In this document: positions 899 through 52,744 of the stretch, piece after piece | Layout of the letters: every line of letters begins with the position of its first letter | How positions within the stretch are numbered: the first letter of the stretch is position 1 | Origin: a virus | Lineage: Duplodnaviria > Heunggongvirae > Uroviricota > Caudoviricetes | Direction: 5' to 3' (one strand) | Virus record (IMG/VR): IMGVR_UViG_2513237251_000009 | DNA length: 64,000 nucleotides | The notes under the pieces: model-generated | What the model was told of the DNA's origin: nothing | The model's database searches: none | Seen by the model: only the letters and a program-made list of their open reading frames with translations | Program-made: the position numbers and the translations under genes

Positions 899-1612
899 TC
901 AATAATCAAGCCCTTGCCTGGATACATATCTGTCTGGCGGGAAGCCATAATAGCGGTGAAATACAGAAATAAAGTAGGACCGGCTTGAATAACCACATTT
1001 TTCTGCTACAGCCTGTCCATATCCATACCGGGAACATAACATATTTACAGCAACACGCATCCGCTCTTCCAGCAACAAGCGACTGAACATGCCCCCTTCA
1101 TTTTTCAGTTTTGTCTTTAACAAACTCTCACTCATATGCAACTGTAGAGCAATCGCACCAAGCGTCCAGCTTGCTGATATATCTGTCTGAATTATCGCCC
1201 TGACTTTGGCACTTATGCTGGATAAACATCCACTTAAAAACAATGACATCCGTTCATCTGTTTCAAACAGAGACAGGCAGGCCATCATAAGAAACATATC
1301 CGTGACCTCTCCGGAAAATCCCTGGCTGGTAATTAAAGCCGCAGCCAACGCAGGATTGTTGGGTTCCAGCAACAGGTAAAGCGGAATGTCAGTCAGACGA
1401 GTCCTCGTCAGCTTATGCTGACTTTCCAGATATTGACTTACGACGGATTCGCTTATATCGACAATTTTAACTTTGCCATAATGCATAAGGAAAAGCTCCC
1501 TGATGCATTTGGTGGCCAGAACGACTGAGCCTGGCTTAAGTGACAACGTATCCTTTTCAAGAAAAATATTAATTGGGGAGCAAACCATGATAACTGAACA
1601 GACAACAGCCAT
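899..1612 (-). CDS. AraC-family transcriptional regulator (possibly PatE/YdeO-like)
   Basis: 237 aa ORF; C-terminal AraC-type HTH (..LLLEERMRVAVNML...GYSSRSYFISVFHRYYG); alternative start at 1588. Confidence 0.65.
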   Translation of the reverse strand: MAVVCSVIMVCSPINIFLEKDTLSLKPGSVVLATKCIRELFLMHYGKVKIVDISESVVSQYLESQHKLTRTRLTDIPLYLLLEPNNPALAAALITSQGFSGEVTDMFLMMACLSLFETDERMSLFLSGCLSSISAKVRAIIQTDISASWTLGAIALQLHMSESLLKTKLKNEGGMFSRLLLEERMRVAVNMLCSRYGYGQAVAEKCGYSSRSYFISVFHRYYGFPPDRYVSRQGLDY

Positions 1613-48651: not shown

Positions 48652-50502
48652 TTATGCTGCCGGTGCATTTATCTCCAGCACCAGACTTTCTATCTCAACG
48701 CCATACGCTGCATTTTTTGTAACATCCGTCAGCGTCAGCGCATTCAGTCCCAGTGTCAGACTGTCTTTTATAACCTGGAATGCCGGGCCAGCCACTCCAT
48801 TCAGTTTCGGAGTAACCGTGGCACTGCCGGCGGTGAACACCAGCTCCAGCGTCTGCCAGTCGTTACCGTAATCGCCGAACTCCCCCAGCTTCGTGTTTCC
48901 GGCTTTCCTGTGATGCATCAGATTCACTCTGCCGTCAGTGGTCTGAGTAAAGTACGACATCAGGAACGGATTACCGGTACCCGTCATCGCCACACCATCA
49001 GGAACGGGAGCATCCGTATACAGATAAATCCCCAGCCCGAACTGATTGTTGGTCAGCGCGCCTGACAGGCGGAACTTACAGGTCAGTCTGCCGCCCTGTG
49101 TCAGCAGGGTAATTGCGTCATCCACCGGATGCGTCAGGGACCAGGTTTTATTGCTCTGCCTGGTGATCTTAAATACACCATCTGACAACTGAATTCCGCC
49201 ATCCTTAATGCTCCAGCCCTGCGCAGCAGCCTCTCCGGCTGCCGGCAGCAGGGAGATTGTGCGAACGGACGTATCTGCAGACGGACCCGATGGCGTGTTG
49301 CCGCCGGGCGAGGGTTTGATTTCCGGTGCCTTACCACTGATGAAGGCTGAGGTGCGCCCGGCTGCGTTCAGAATAGCGGTTGCCAGACGATCCGGAATAA
49401 TGCTCCTGCGCGCCCATGAACTGAAATGTGTCGGGCGGTTTGATGATACCTGGTTTCCATTCGTTCTCGATGCCGCACCGTAATATCCTGATGCCGGAAT
49501 ATCCGGATCTTCTGCCGGCGCGTTAGTGGCGGTATTGACGCCGTTACCGTCTGTCATGAAGGGCACAAAATAAACGCCCTCACTCTCCCTGTTTTTATAC
49601 CCGCCGTACACGGTGTCGTACTGGGTAGCGTATGTATTTTTCCAGTAATACGTCGTGTCACCACAAATCCACGGCACATCTGCAGCACTGCCACCATGGC
49701 ACTGCGCGTTAAACACGGAGAGGTCAGCACGAAACTGTGCCAGCATGGCTGTAAACAGCGCAGGTTGCTGTGCGTGGGTGGCGGCGCTCATGTCAAACTC
49801 TCCCTGCATCCAGCAGACGGCCAGCAGAACGTTTTTGGGATTTTTCTGCAATGCCGCTTTTGTGCGGGAAATCAGATCCTGATATAACGGCTTGCCCACC
49901 CCCCAGCGTGCCGAATCCTGGCTGGCCCCCGTGGACTCGCTGAATGTCCCCTCCGCGCCCTGGGTAAATGCCGAACCACCACGACAGCATGGTACCAGCA
50001 GGATCCCCGCGTTATTCGGGATATACGGGAGCAGTTTTTTGGCAATATGTAACCCCTGGCCGACACAGCCGTACTGCCCTTTGCTCAGGTCTGCCTTCGG
50101 ATGATTCAGCGTACTCATATCCTGCACATCATGCAGGCAGTGGTCGGCCGGAATAATATCGTTATATCTGCAGGCAGCCCCACCCGGCGTCACTGTACTG
50201 CGGCGCGCCAGCTGTTTAATGCGCGGATCCGGAGCATCGTATGAATCCGGCAGCGGAAGCCCTTCACCGTAAGCCATGGCATTGGACTGCCCGGCCAGTA
50301 CGATGACGTAGTACCAATCCGGCTCAGTTGCACCACTGACCACCACATCACCTTCTGCTGTAATCGCCTGCATCAGGGTATAAGGGGTTATGGCCACCGG
50401 ACTACCAAACGGCTGCCAGCCCTCTTTCAGTTTGTGTGTCAGCTTTTCCGCAAGGTCTGACGGCGACGCCGCCCTGACAACATCATAATGTTTAATCGAC
50501 AT
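48652..50502 (-). CDS. nanS: Prophage sialate O-acetylesterase (NanS-p)
   Basis: 616 aa; N-terminal MSIKHYDVV..., esterase-like region VIVLAGQSNAMAYGEG. Confidence 0.8.
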   Translation of the reverse strand: MSIKHYDVVRAASPSDLAEKLTHKLKEGWQPFGSPVAITPYTLMQAITAEGDVVVSGATEPDWYYVIVLAGQSNAMAYGEGLPLPDSYDAPDPRIKQLARRSTVTPGGAACRYNDIIPADHCLHDVQDMSTLNHPKADLSKGQYGCVGQGLHIAKKLLPYIPNNAGILLVPCCRGGSAFTQGAEGTFSESTGASQDSARWGVGKPLYQDLISRTKAALQKNPKNVLLAVCWMQGEFDMSAATHAQQPALFTAMLAQFRADLSVFNAQCHGGSAADVPWICGDTTYYWKNTYATQYDTVYGGYKNRESEGVYFVPFMTDGNGVNTATNAPAEDPDIPASGYYGAASRTNGNQVSSNRPTHFSSWARRSIIPDRLATAILNAAGRTSAFISGKAPEIKPSPGGNTPSGPSADTSVRTISLLPAAGEAAAQGWSIKDGGIQLSDGVFKITRQSNKTWSLTHPVDDAITLLTQGGRLTCKFRLSGALTNNQFGLGIYLYTDAPVPDGVAMTGTGNPFLMSYFTQTTDGRVNLMHHRKAGNTKLGEFGDYGNDWQTLELVFTAGSATVTPKLNGVAGPAFQVIKDSLTLGLNALTLTDVTKNAAYGVEIESLVLEINAPAA

Positions 50503-50588
50503 CGAATTTCTCCCGTGTACAGGAACAGAGTTAAAAAGCCGGAACCGGAATCAAATCACAGGATGACCATCTGCCAGTGGCTGGTCGT

Positions 50589-50617
50589 AAAAAAAAGGCC
50601 GCGCCATGCGCAGCCGG
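50589..50617 (-). terminator. Intrinsic terminator upstream of nanS-p
   Basis: Stem GGCTGCGC/GCGCGGCC with ATG loop followed by U8 on the minus strand. Confidence 0.55.
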
Positions 50618-50816
50618 AAATAAAGGGATAACGATGATAGTTTGAGAAAAACAGAAATAACACTTTTGTGGCAAAGCATGGTGCCGGGTGCCTCCCGGTG
50701 AATTCAGTACCAGCACCTGAATCCGCGATTATCCCATATACCTTCTTGCTGATCGCCCCTCCGCACAGGGGGATTCACCATGCAGAAGTGTTTTTAATAA
50801 ACAGCAAACAAAAAAA

Positions 50817-50984
50817 TCAAGCATTATGCAGGCTGTTTCTTTTTATCACCGGCCACAGCAATACCACAATGCCGCAGACCAGCACCCCATCCGCCAGCAC
50901 CGACATGATTCTGCTGGTGAAATCCACCATCACCACCAGAAACAGCAGGAGTGCAGCCACAGTCAGGCGCAGTTTTACCGTCAC
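50817..50984 (-). CDS. Small membrane protein coupled to TerB-like gene
   Basis: GTG start overlaps the TerB TGA stop; 55 aa VTVKLRLTVAALLLFLVVMVDFTSRIMSVLADGVLVCGIVVLLWPVIKRNSLHNA. Confidence 0.4.
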   Translation of the reverse strand: MTVKLRLTVAALLLFLVVMVDFTSRIMSVLADGVLVCGIVVLLWPVIKRNSLHNA

Positions 50985-51413
50985 AGGTGATTCTCCAGAC
51001 GAAGACCCAGAACACCGGCAATCTCTTCCAGCACCTTGCGCTCTTCCGGCTCAATTTCGCCGTCTGCCTCCGCAATGGCCACCGCCACATCCAGCACATC
51101 TTCCGCTTCACGCGTATCGTGTTTCACATCCTCGATCTCACGTAACGCCGCACGACGACCAGTTTTAAAGTTCGTATCCAGCTGACCGATAATGGTTGCG
51201 CTAATCGCATTAATTTCTGACGTAAACGCGGACAGCGCAGGCTGATTACGCAGTACCTGTTCGATCTTCGCTTTCTCGGATGCCTCACATTCACCATCTG
51301 CACAGGCCACCAGGTATGCGGCGTTAATCACCACCTGTGCCAGATCGCGTTTTTCAAACTTTTTAATTTCCGTTGCCGCTCTGCGGGCTTTTTTTACCAA
51401 AAATACCAAACAT
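50981..51413 (-). CDS. TerB-like protein (frame disrupted near codon 7 at an A-run)
   Basis: Paralog of 17-448; ATG at 51413 reads MFGIFGKKSPQ...stop, main body continues in another frame. Confidence 0.55.
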
Positions 51414-51551
51414 CGTGACGTTCCTTTGGGTGGGTGAGCCAACGCCCGGGAGCGATCTGCCCACAGAGAAAGTCACACTGACCACTCCGTAAGCTCCCCC
51501 CCCCCCCCGAAAGGCTCTGTGGTTGGTATGTGCCGGGCGTGGCGCAGATAC

Positions 51552-51575
51552 AAAAAAGGCCCGCAAAAGCGAGCC
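51552..51575 (-). terminator. Intrinsic terminator after tRNA cluster
   Basis: Counterpart of 581-604 with a less perfect stem. Confidence 0.4.
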
Positions 51576-51588
51576 GGGAAAATAAGTG

Positions 51589-51665
51589 TGGCGCGTTGTA
51601 CTGGAGTCGAACCAGTGACCGATTGCTTAGAAGGCAATTGCTCTGTCCTGCTGAGCTAAAAACGC
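51589..51665 (-). tRNA. argO: tRNA-Arg (UCU), argO-type
   Basis: Near-identical to 618-694 with one acceptor-stem mismatch. Confidence 0.75.
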
Positions 51666-51678
51666 AGAATACCGATAA

Positions 51679-51755
51679 TGGACCGCCATCGGAGACTCGA
51701 ACCCCGCGAAACCAGCTTCGAAGGCTGGCGTTCTATCCCGATGAGCTAATGGCGG
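51679..51755 (-). tRNA. argN: tRNA-Arg (UCG), argN-type
   Basis: Anticodon loop CTTCGAA, T-arm GGGGTTCGAGTCTCC, 3' CCA. Confidence 0.75.
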
Positions 51756-51762
51756 TATGTGA

Positions 51763-51838
51763 TGGTGGCCCTTGCTGGATTTGAACCAGCGGCCTGGCGA
51801 TTATGAGTCGCTCGCTCTCACCACTGAGCTAAAGGGCC
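51763..51838 (-). tRNA. ileZ: tRNA-Ile (CAU, lysidine-type), ileZ-type
   Basis: Near-identical to 795-870. Confidence 0.8.
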
Positions 51839-52048
51839 GGGCGCAGGATAATAACGTTACGAAATCAATGTTGCAAGCATTCAAGAATCACCTGGTTAAA
51901 AATTACCCTTACTTCCTCCACCAGCGCATTCACCATGTCTATCCGAGATAAGTGGCACAAAAAAACCCGCTTGTGGGCGGGTTTTGTTTGCTTTTGCCAT
52001 CACGTACAAAATCGGCAAAATATCAGATTTGCATGAAATATATGCCTT

Positions 52049-52744
52049 TCAATCTACTTTTGCAACACTTTGCTTTGAAAATGCCGCCTTTTGTTTTGAA
52101 CGCGTTCTCATTACAAACAATAAAGCCTCACTATCCAGTCGGTGAAAAATGTGTTTCATTGCAACCCAGTGACGAGTAAATGTTTTGGACCAGTTTTTAG
52201 TTGTCACTCCCACCAGTAATGCCAGCTCCTTGTATTCATAACCTTCCCCACCAAAAAGTTCTGCTTTTACTGCCTGCGCCGCCAGCCAGATTAATTTTTT
52301 CAGGCGTTCCTGCGTTTTCCCTGCAATTTTTCTGGTACCGGATTGAGTATTAAATTCATTCCACGCCCACTGTGTTATCGCGATCTGATATTCCCAACAA
52401 ATACTCCCGCTGTAACACCACAACAACCAGGCTTTATGATGTTCTTCAAGAGACAGAACAGCCCGCCGCCACGATGATGTCGAAAACTCAACCGGACTGA
52501 CCAGAGGAATTGACGTCACCTTCGCCAGCGATTGCTTTCCCGGGATTGGTGGATTATCCCGCGTTATCATTTTTCCAGTCACTTCATCGCGGTACCGGAT
52601 TTTTTTTCGCCTGTAACGCCCTGTATCGAACATGGCATTCTCCTGCCAGGCTTCAAGCTGACCTTTTGTTGCCCCACTCAAATCAGCGGTGGCGATAATG
52701 AGCTGCTCACGCACAAACTGTAAATAGTGGTTATTCATGCGCAC
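52049..52744 (-). CDS. Putative late antiterminator Q (QuuQ-like family)
   Basis: 231 aa, by position between RusA and late tRNAs; unrelated to prophage A Q. Confidence 0.5.
   Translation of the reverse strand: MRMNNHYLQFVREQLIIATADLSGATKGQLEAWQENAMFDTGRYRRKKIRYRDEVTGKMITRDNPPIPGKQSLAKVTSIPLVSPVEFSTSSWRRAVLSLEEHHKAWLLWCYSGSICWEYQIAITQWAWNEFNTQSGTRKIAGKTQERLKKLIWLAAQAVKAELFGGEGYEYKELALLVGVTTKNWSKTFTRHWVAMKHIFHRLDSEALLFVMRTRSKQKAAFSKQSVAKVD

Follow-up and report, generated by a model that had tools for sequence, protein, structure and literature searches.

The window analysed here, a stretch of 64,000 nucleotides, is 100% identical to E. coli O157:H7 Sakai, and its two prophages, A and B, are Sp11 and Sp12. 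On the minus strand of Sp12 lies a two-gene cassette, in which tciA (ECs_2265, WP_001303509.1; 50981–51409) encodes a TerB-family protein of 142 amino acids read from a TTG, and tciB (ECs_5733, WP_000216653.1; 50817–50984) encodes a 55-amino-acid DUF3927 membrane protein with a GTG start. Sp11 carries the same pair on the same strand: its tciA (ECs_2190; 17–448) encodes 143 amino acids from a canonical, in-frame ATG, and the first 20 nt of its tciB (ECs_5731; 1–20) remain before the window edge truncates the gene, with the alignment to Sp12 reaching base 1 and the full gene annotated in Sakai. The small gene is thus present in prophage B, as a preliminary description of this DNA had it, but is not specific to that prophage. 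Nor is the cassette new, as that description implied, since both genes are in RefSeq, labelled “TciA/TerB-like” and “DUF3927”, are very common in phages and are homologous to the tciAB genes of phage P1, in which the names tciA and tciB were first given. Among 5426 complete E. coli genomes, 839 (~15%) carry the pair, and those that do have a median of six copies.

The TerB relationship proposed for both prophages is borne out by profile searches (Pfam, PHROG), a solved structure and a fold search, all of which agree. The Sp12 open reading frame (50981–51442) and its Sp11 counterpart (17–448) match Pfam TerB PF05099 with E-values of 7.7e-14 (52.4 bits) and 3.7e-14 (53.4 bits; cut-off 24.4), and TciA matches PHROG 632 over its full length (E 1e-68) and the solved TerB structure 2jxu_A over residues 15–137 (E 2.9e-7). 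An AlphaFold2 model of TciA consists of six helices (pLDDT 83), and its top Foldseek matches are 2h5n (probability 1.0, TM 0.53–0.60) and 2ou3, a ‘tellurite resistance protein COG3793’, with weak E-values of 0.01 or more. The protein contains paired acidic motifs of the form A-D-G-x5-E (CADGECEASEK and EADGEIEPEER), which are thought to bind metal; all of 13 diverse phage homologues keep D39, E46, D117 and E124, and nearly all keep G40 and G118. The hydrophobic-basic N-terminus (MFGxFKKK) is conserved as well. TciA is a stand-alone, all-helical TerB-family protein that keeps both acidic DG-x5-E motifs, and it shares these motifs, its size, its single-domain architecture and its Pfam family with the TerB of the K. 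pneumoniae terZABCDEF operon (PDB 2jxu). Unlike in that operon, none of terZ, terA, terC, terD, terE or terF lies beside tciA, whose neighbours are tRNAs, the DUF3927 gene, the nanS-p esterase gene and lysis genes, and the partner is a 55-amino-acid DUF3927 protein rather than TerC. The ‘tellurite resistance’ label derives from homology alone, and the cassette should not be taken for a phage-carried resistance gene.

The start of the Sp12 gene requires correction. The coordinates first given for it, 50981–51413, span 433 nt, which is no multiple of three, and the ATG at 51413 is out of the TerB frame: translation from it through the span of the TerB body meets 12 stop codons. The ATG is out of frame because the A-run at 51395–51389 has seven A, whereas intact alleles have six; as a result, this canonical start, with the Shine-Dalgarno sequence AAGGA 8 nt upstream, opens only a 16-codon frame (minus strand, 51363–51413; MFGIFGKKSPQSGNGN followed by a stop). 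The in-frame minus-strand reading frame reaches up to 51442, and RefSeq and PGAP start the protein at TTG 51409 (142 amino acids). Programmed frameshifting on the A7 run was considered and rejected, as it would require a +1 shift, has no support, and a simple insertion in an A6 allele suffices. A second homopolymer, 13 G in the minus-strand reading (51496–51508), lies between the upstream terminator (see below) and the tciA ribosome-binding site; the tract is G5 in Sp11 and variable in length among related loci. The one-base insertion, by displacing the normal ATG, probably leaves Sp12 tciA weakly expressed, and Sp12 tciB would be weak too because it is coupled to tciA. Much of the practical value of the analysis is correct bookkeeping: both genes are real and annotated, and the Sp12 allele has a displaced start.

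These features raise the question of whether the cassette is a relic, idle in both prophages and effectively a pseudogene in Sp12. Sp11 and Sp12 are defective prophages with disrupted repressor and integrase, for which neither excision nor replication was seen (PMC2669165), and the 16-codon frame opened by the out-of-frame ATG runs across the TTG start, so that competition between the two is to be expected. We nevertheless regard this reading as unlikely, since the Sp11 copy is intact, the Sp11 and Sp12 proteins are identical beyond the first ~10 codons with no further lesions, and the frameshift is a stable allele, present at 34 of 81 related loci as well as in many complete O157 genomes. Moreover, PGAP accepts the TTG-start protein, whose N-terminus is still hydrophobic-basic (MVFLVKK).

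The second gene is tightly coupled to the first. As described before, the tciB GTG (50984–50982) overlaps the tciA TGA (50983–50981) as GTGA, and all 81 related loci share this 4-nt overlap. The GTG is preceded by GGAG at a distance of 8 nt. The encoded protein scores 62.6 bits against Pfam DUF3927 (PF13064; cut-off 25; E 3.3e-17) and also matches PHROG 1470, ‘TciB-like’ (E 5.6e-30). Its conserved residues are K4, D21-F22, D32, P45 and K48, and it contains both DUF3927 motifs, DF(T/S)S and (A/S/T)D(G/E), the latter within LADG here; in the alignment, D21, F22 and D32 never vary, S24 and G33 hardly do, and position 31 is A, S or T. Synonymous sites are saturated between the P1, N4-like and lambdoid versions, yet residues are kept, and pairwise dN/dS is 0.19–0.68, below 1, in the comparisons where dS is estimable. 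Furthermore, at all six places read for the commonest DUF3927 protein, the gene just upstream encodes TerB, and a species-level sampling of Enterobacterales gives the same adjacency at 7 of 8 loci. Diverse TciB loci for these comparisons came from GenBank phages and a species-level genome scan, the IMG/VR scan having yielded only near-identical E. coli prophages.

Pfam membership, dN/dS and TerB adjacency in nearly all relatives together indicate, at the level of sequence, that the 55-codon frame is a real, conserved and coupled gene. That it is untranslated, and the stretch downstream of tciA merely untranslated RNA, might be suspected from its GTG start and very short length, and from its absence from the original Sakai annotation, to which the ECs_5733 tag suggests a later addition. 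With a score far above the Pfam family cut-off, the selective constraint on its residues, the GGAG 8 nt upstream and a constant position after the TerB gene, we consider this extremely improbable.

The topology of TciB is less certain than the two-helix form first described. Two hydrophobic segments (~5–20 and 26–47), separated by DFTSR, do appear in a hydrophobicity scan, which is rough and not a validated predictor; the AlphaFold2 monomer model, however, is one continuous helix over residues 3–54 (pLDDT 89.7) with no hairpin. Two apparent TerB-DUF3927 fusions (P0006, P0066) were examined as Rosetta-stone evidence and set aside, as the junction sequence matches neither gene and we read them as frameshift products from near-identical E. 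coli. For phage 434, the annotation lists a 62-amino-acid ‘membrane protein’ beyond tciB; this too was taken as spurious, its match in the window (~50559–50708) including the terminator hairpin at 50597–50615.

The cassette sits within a recognizable lambdoid late operon, all of it read on the minus strand. The Sp12 antiterminator Q gene (ECs_2267; 52049–52744) is identified by Pfam Phage_antiter_Q PF06323 (E 7e-92) and RefSeq, and its 3' end contains a pR'-like sigma-70 promoter (52037–52065; TTGCAA, 17 nt spacer, TATATT) that scores 9 of 12 consensus matches and is assigned its putative function by position. A tR'-like hairpin (CCCGC CCAC AAGCGGG) followed by T7 comes next (51956–51985), for which the scan gives a symmetrical hairpin on the plus strand at 51962–51985. 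Three tRNA genes follow: ileZ6 (51763–51838), with a CAT anticodon and called Met by ARAGORN and tRNA-Ile by RefSeq, then argN4 (tRNA-Arg, tcg; 51679–51755) and argO6 (tRNA-Arg, tct; 51589–51665), both from tRNA calls and annotation. The tRNA cluster ends in an intrinsic terminator (51548–51575; GGCTCGC TTTT GCGGGCC + T6), beyond which lies tciAB. Directly 3' of tciB is an STnc100/PasD-family sRNA element (50640–50812; Rfam RF02076, 101.8 bits against a gathering score of 47, E 1.5e-22), then a second intrinsic terminator (50587–50615; GGCTGCGC ATG GCGCGGCC + T8), and then a nanS-p-type esterase gene (ECs_2262; 48652–50502), with Pfam DUF1737, SASA and DUF6645 domains and annotated as ‘SASA family carbohydrate esterase’. 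In Sp11, the corresponding region holds the tRNA pair argO5 (618–694) and ileZ5 (795–870), spanning 618–870 by tRNA call and annotation, and a copy of the post-tRNA terminator (578–605).

Both terminators said to bracket the cassette were recovered by our scan, the upstream one as a hairpin at 51575–51558 (7 pairs, 6 G-C) with T6 and the downstream one at 50615–50597 (8 pairs, 7 G-C) with T8. Terminator-like sites are no more numerous than expected by chance (3, versus 2.5 ± 1.6 in shuffles); the upstream hairpin, however, is kept at the homologous place in Sp11 (605–586) and upstream of stx2A in the Sakai Stx2 phage Sp5. The downstream terminator is present as described, but the sRNA element between it and tciB had been missed.

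The proposal that the cassette occupies the slot equivalent to stx holds up in direct alignments with the flanks of Sp5 and of the Stx1 phage 75/02. The left flank (window 51876–51541) aligns to Sp5 at 92% up to 42 bp before stx2A, and the right flank (window 50801–50676) aligns from 87 bp after Sp5 stx2B at 72%, and to phage 75/02 at 95%, so that a ~740-bp cassette stands in place of stx2AB between flanks common to Sp12 and Sp5. Members of the STnc100 family also follow stx2B in Sp5, stx1B in phage 75/02 and tciB in Sp11 and JLK-2012. These comparisons show tciAB to be the first cargo in the late operon: Q, pR'/tR', the ileZ-argN-argO tRNAs and a terminator precede it, and the STnc100-family RNA, a second terminator and nanS-p follow. 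Because the flanks are shared, this is the stxAB slot of Stx phages, which has the same elements on either side. The locus is a clean example of cargo swap in lambdoid late operons, the same flanks bracketing either stxAB or tciAB. The proteins themselves are unrelated. Stx phages differ further in carrying antisense RNAs beyond STnc100 (AsxR in Sp5, AgvB in phage 75/02), and neither of these anti-sRNAs is found in Sp12 even at a permissive threshold. An additional iron-regulated promoter serves stx1.

A scan for near-consensus sigma-70 sites, which weak or regulated promoters could escape, finds no promoter-like site between the post-tRNA terminator and tciA. Together with the pR'-like promoter and tR'-like hairpin after Q, this makes Q-dependent read-through into tciAB likely. 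Lacking a promoter-like site of its own, tciAB would be transcribed mainly from pR' by Q-modified polymerase, late in lytic growth. The tciAB genes are not listed in the supplements of an O157 induction transcriptome.

The closest known system is the tciA-tciB-tciC cluster in the ban operon of P1. By tblastn to P1, TciA is 40.6% identical over its full length, and the core of TciB is 58% identical. Gene order and the stop/start overlap are the same, and tRNA genes adjoin the pair in both; one of these, with the anticodon CAT, shows 85% DNA identity between the two. In both phages function is assigned by homology only. P1 differs in having a third small gene, tciC (35 amino acids, one transmembrane segment), where Sp12 has the STnc100-family RNA; P1 TciC gives no significant tblastn match in 50300–51100. 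The setting differs too, the P1 genes lying in an early, C1-repressed operon and the Sp12 pair in the late region, which is probably Q-dependent. A CRISPRi screen found P1 tciA, tciB and tciC non-essential, so any role must be accessory.

Beyond P1, the two genes are adjacent in the N4-like phage Pollock and the Erwinia jumbo phage ChrisDB, and the same stop/start arrangement, overlapping or abutting, recurs in P1, Pollock, JLK-2012 and ChrisDB. In a Vibrio phage relative, a TerC gene adjoins the TerB gene, and in Pseudomonas phage AF an unannotated open reading frame for a 73-amino-acid single-transmembrane protein follows TerB with a GTGA overlap. According to the literature, TerB is a membrane-associated, amphitropic protein that forms a TerC-TerB complex, and DjlA bears a TerB-like domain beside a transmembrane helix. 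A membrane partner beside TerB is thus a recurring theme, exemplified by TerC in the Vibrio phage, the single-transmembrane protein of phage AF, TerC-TerB and DjlA. TciA itself weakly but specifically matches DjlA (NCBIfam, E 4e-7) and YebE (DUF533, Pfam, E 1e-5), both below the family cut-offs. These two host proteins follow the same logic, in which a TerB-like domain is tethered to the inner membrane on its cytoplasmic side; in the cassette, by contrast, the membrane segment is a separate polypeptide and there is no J domain.

On balance, we favor, with moderate confidence, the view that the cassette is the lambdoid-prophage version of P1 tciAB, a late, Q-dependent, inner-membrane-associated TerB module acting on membrane state. 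TciB would be a small inner-membrane protein that anchors or partners amphitropic TciA at the cytoplasmic face, making the two a two-polypeptide analogue of TerB-TerC, DjlA or YebE. Such a complex could act on ion or metal handling, envelope stress or the exclusion of other phages, to the benefit of the replicating phage, and tciAB alone would not be a tellurite-resistance determinant. A role in lytic growth fits the presence of tciAB in strictly lytic phages and, in P1, in the C1-repressed ban operon. This late-lytic role cannot currently operate from the Sp11 and Sp12 copies, since neither prophage is inducible. EHEC genomes retain about six copies each, and many of these lie in defective prophages; a benefit at the level of the host fits this at least as well. 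Full-text literature yields no functional report on TciA/TciB, DUF3927, ECs2265/ECs2190 or a prophage TerB family protein, and no experimental report of a tellurite, phage-inhibition or colicin phenotype for tciAB.

Alternatively, the cassette could be a lysogenic-conversion or defence module, expressed in the lysogen and protecting it against superinfecting phages (by exclusion), colicin or tellurite, with TciA as an amphitropic sensor at the membrane and TciB as its small membrane effector in the manner of a minimal TerB-containing defence system. Published work makes this conceivable: ter operons inhibit phages and confer colicin resistance, terC affects phage infection, and the Bunzi, Shango and Dionysus defence systems include TerB proteins alongside membrane proteins. 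Shango, Bunzi and Dionysus resemble the cassette in combining a small TerB protein with membrane proteins, and a ‘membrane surveillance’ role has been proposed for them. Many defective prophages keep the cassette, which has a median copy number of six in the genomes that carry it; this points the same way, as does the neighbouring cargo in other prophages, which includes methyltransferases, type I R-M subunits and a ParE toxin. We hold this explanation to be possible but somewhat unlikely. PADLOC defence models give no significant match, the best being TciA to PDC-S48 (E 0.005 over 35 residues), with none for TciB, and the cassette has no neighbouring gene for a helicase, ATPase, MAEBL or pore-forming partner. 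Additionally, no promoter-like site precedes tciA and terminators stand on both sides. The pair is phage-encoded, and its carriers include N4-like and jumbo phages that are strictly lytic, in which protection of a lysogen would be meaningless, although exclusion of competitors is still possible there.

A further candidate role is that of an anti-defence decoy, in which a phage TerB mimics host TerB domains and blocks Ter, Shango, Bunzi or Dionysus membrane surveillance during infection. In its favor, lytic and temperate phages that are unrelated to each other have the module, often within early regions, and host defence systems use TerB proteins. The case is, however, purely inferential and leaves unexplained both the tight coupling to a dedicated membrane protein and the pairing with TerC in the Vibrio phage; we judge it very unlikely.

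A broader and quite speculative extension of the membrane-module reading is that tciAB may be a minimal, widely mobile ‘TerB-at-the-membrane’ device, in which a stand-alone amphitropic TerB and a tiny dedicated membrane partner, replaced elsewhere by TerC or an unrelated single-transmembrane protein, move with phage tRNA genes among P1-like, lambdoid and jumbo phages, and either control the ion or metal state of the inner membrane during infection or blind or mimic host TerB-based immunity. If this were true, the commonest occupant of the Shiga-toxin slot would be a phage-host conflict module. In any event, the pair is highly successful, ranging from ~15% of complete E. coli genomes to P1-like, N4-like and jumbo phages.

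The 1.1 kb around the cassette matches E. coli O157:H7 Sakai (NC_002695.2) and many other O157:H7 genomes at 100%; window base 1 corresponds to Sakai position ~2,189,034, and the two elements are the neighbouring lambda-like prophages Sp11 and Sp12, with all genes treated here on the minus strand. In both, the repressor and integrase genes are disrupted, and excision, replication and packaging do not take place (PMC2669165). The cassette, a TerB-family gene (tciA) followed by a small DUF3927 gene (tciB), is an ordinary, already catalogued feature, and the preliminary description of it holds except at the start of the Sp12 copy and is largely right in its interpretation. Worth keeping are the precise boundaries of the cargo swap, a frameshift allele, and the linkage of tciAB to tRNAs in lambdoid phages, P1 and a jumbo phage.

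The proposal that tciAB sits in an stx-equivalent slot is borne out by flanks that align around stx2AB in Sp5, the Stx2 phage of Sakai itself, where the order is Q, ileZ-argN-argO, stx2A, stx2B and a nanS-p homologue. The left flank, window 51876-51541, takes in the tRNAs, the terminator and a little sequence beyond it; it is 92% identical to Sp5 and ends 42 bp before stx2A, and on the right homology restarts at 50801, 87 bp after stx2B, at 72% to Sp5 and 95% to the Stx1 phage 75/02. Given these shared flanks, about 740 bp with tciAB (51540-50802) thus take the place of the toxin phage's stxAB segment of about 1.37 kb. On its right side the cargo slot is bordered in both by a structured RNA that belongs to the Rfam family STnc100: an STnc100/PasD-family sRNA element directly follows tciB at 50640-50812 (-) (101.8 bits; gathering score 47), with counterparts 3' of stx2B in Sp5 (207.7 bits), of stx1B in 75/02 (141 bits), and of tciB in Sp11 (104.7 bits) and the inducible phage JLK-2012 (107.1 bits). 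At 50640-50812 the Rfam model goes unmatched in its 3' terminator portion, the real hairpin lying about 25 nt further on. STnc100 is related to PasD sRNAs, and TerB is among the genes usual near PasA/PasC (2026 preprint). Immediately beyond STnc100, in antisense, lie AsxR in Sp5 (comparison locus L009, 5630-5682 (-); 88 bits) and AgvB in 75/02 (locus L007, 3679-3738 (-); 56.6 bits); the corresponding position in Sp12 showed neither.

The cassette occupies a late-operon position, and both terminators said to bracket it were recovered, at 51575-51558 with a T6 tail and at 50615-50597 with a T8 tail, in a region where terminator-like sites are not above chance (3 vs 2.5 ± 1.6 in shuffles). The upstream hairpin is conserved in matching position in Sp11 (605-586) and before stx2A in Sp5, and the downstream one stands 3' of the STnc100-family element. 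A promoter-like site at 52065-52037 overlaps the end of Q, and next comes a hairpin with a run of seven T (51985-51956), an arrangement expected for putative pR' and tR'. The tRNAs have a second promoter-like site ahead of them (51876-51848) and the terminator at 51575-51558 behind them. Between that terminator and tciA the scan gave no promoter-like site, so read-through into tciAB would be predicted to need antiterminated polymerase, a dependence well established for stx2 in phages of the 933W type. The Sp11 antiterminator (2170-2736) is of the DUF1133/Phage_antitermQ family, different from the Phage_antiter_Q family of Sp12 Q, and between its gene and the tRNAs lies an AraC-family regulator (ECs_2191, 'phage regulatory protein'; 899-1612 (-); Pfam HTH_AraC, E 2.9e-13). 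A PGAP pseudogene fragment at 50479-50622 (+), 'hypothetical protein, partial in the middle of a contig', overlaps the nanS-p start and the terminator hairpin and is probably an annotation artefact.

The suggested TerB relationship of the larger gene holds in both prophages: Pfam TerB (PF05099) is matched far over its cut-off of 24.4 bits by the ORFs at 50981-51442 in Sp12 (52.4 bits) and 17-448 in Sp11 (53.4 bits), each with E about 1e-14, and RefSeq names the product "TciA/TerB-like protein" or "tellurite resistance TerB family protein". TciA consists of a single, complete TerB domain. Its P1 homologue is 40.6% identical over the full length, the solved K. pneumoniae TerB (2jxu) aligns with residues 15-137 (E 2.9e-7), and an AlphaFold2 model has six helices (pLDDT 83), with the TerB-like proteins 2h5n and 2ou3 as closest structural matches. 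Two A-D-G-x5-E motifs and a hydrophobic-basic N-terminus, MFGxFKKK, are kept across distant phage homologues.

The small gene (50817-50984, 55 codons) matches Pfam DUF3927 (62.6 bits vs cut-off 25; E 3e-17) and PHROG 1470 "TciB-like", is named "DUF3927 family protein" in RefSeq, and shares 58% identity over the core with its P1 homologue. As described, its GTG (50984-50982) overlaps the tciA TGA (50983-50981); a GGAG lies 8 nt 5' of the GTG. It had been placed in prophage B, where it is indeed present, but Sp11 has tciB too (ECs_5731), the window starting 20 nt into the gene. Likewise, the two hydrophobic segments of the proposed two-helix membrane protein are there, with a conserved DFTSR between them, but AlphaFold2 models one continuous helix. 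Residues K4, D21-F22, D32, P45 and K48 are kept, and non-synonymous divergence is well below synonymous (pairwise dN/dS 0.19-0.68 where dS is estimable, synonymous sites being saturated in several comparisons); by these sequence criteria tciB has the marks of a protein-coding gene.

The start of the Sp12 tciA gene needs revision. A TerB gene is present, but the interval first assigned to it, 50981-51413, is no reading frame and gives 12 stop codons on translation. The Sp11 gene opens in frame with ATG TTT GGA ATC TTC AAA AAG AAA ACC, whereas ATG TTT GGT ATT TTT GGT AAA AAA AGC in Sp12 reaches a stop after 16 codons; past about codon 10 the two gene copies encode identical proteins. The intact allele in related loci has six A (GGTAAAAAAGCC) and Sp12 has seven (51395-51389), which puts the canonical ATG out of frame, and RefSeq and PGAP therefore start the gene at TTG 51409 (142 aa, N-terminus MVFLVKKARR). 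The seven-A allele is no sequencing error: 34 of 81 related loci have it, as do many complete genomes. With the Shine-Dalgarno spaced for the ATG and the TTG overlapped by a short ATG-initiated ORF, expression of tciA and of the coupled tciB is probably reduced in Sp12, and this copy specifically may be a hypomorph or relic. A G13 run (minus-strand reading; 51496-51508) stands upstream of the tciA ribosome-binding site, after the post-tRNA terminator; it is G5 then T in Sp11 and about 4 to 13 long in related loci; it may be a hypermutable tract.

The pairing of the two genes is widely conserved. Among near-identical viral contigs plus the Sp12 copy, TerB lies directly 5' of DUF3927 with the GTGA overlap in 81/81; the same order holds for the commonest 54-aa DUF3927 protein (6/6 places read, just upstream of holin) and in other Enterobacterales (7/8 species-level loci), and the genes are adjacent in all three of P1, the N4-like phage Pollock and the Erwinia jumbo phage ChrisDB. 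Phages 434 and 2B8 and E. albertii depart from this order, tciB there lying 3' of a different gene. In 434 (locus L003, 2138-3125) and 2B8 this gene encodes a 247-aa 'putative membrane protein' without Pfam match, so TerB is not the only partner that DUF3927 can have. Conversely, where DUF3927 is missing, another membrane protein adjoins the TerB gene. Vibrio phage vB_VpaP-MS02 (locus L092, 78-1626) has a TerC/Alx-family membrane gene (Pfam TerC, E 3.6e-41) immediately 5' of a TciA-like TerB gene, a phage-borne TerC-TerB pair. In Pseudomonas phage AF (locus L091, 1632-1853), an unannotated 73-aa single-TM ORF overlaps the TerB stop with its GTG (GTGA), coupled as tciB is but unlike DUF3927 in sequence.

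In the literature, TerB is membrane-associated and amphitropic, in complex with TerC; DjlA holds a TerB-like domain beside its membrane helix; and the Bunzi, Shango and Dionysus defence systems include TerB proteins, and "membrane surveillance" has been proposed for these systems. Together with the identity of both proteins, their coupling, their late-operon position and the recurring membrane partner, these precedents lead us to lean, somewhat beyond even chances, towards a reading in which TciB would hold or partner TciA on the cytoplasmic side of the inner membrane and the pair would adjust membrane, ion or envelope state, or exclude competitors, during lytic growth. The main rival, a host-protective function expressed from the prophage, better explains why the cassette is kept in so many defective prophages; we consider it unlikely, as strictly lytic phages carry tciAB and the P1 copy sits in the early ban operon, both of which favour an infection-time role over lysogenic conversion. 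An anti-defence decoy role is conceivable but improbable. In P1, tciA and tciB were non-essential in a CRISPRi screen (PMC10695390).

The cassette core occurs in 839 of 5426 complete E. coli genomes, at a median of six places per positive genome. In phages of unrelated types (lambdoid phages, P1, a jumbo phage), tciAB is located inside a tRNA cluster or directly behind one, which could reflect co-transfer, a shared 'cargo island' or a functional link. Most lambdoid prophages have Ile-CAT and Arg tRNAs beside it (L093, L097 and L098 are among the comparison loci with tRNA-linked tciAB), and JLK-2012 has Asn, Thr and Gly tRNAs (locus L008, 2274-3268). Asn and Thr tRNAs precede and Ile-CAT follows in P1 (locus L005, 1116-2776), while in ChrisDB (locus L090, 586-2814) Trp and Cys tRNAs precede tciAB and Tyr, Gln and Ile tRNAs follow.
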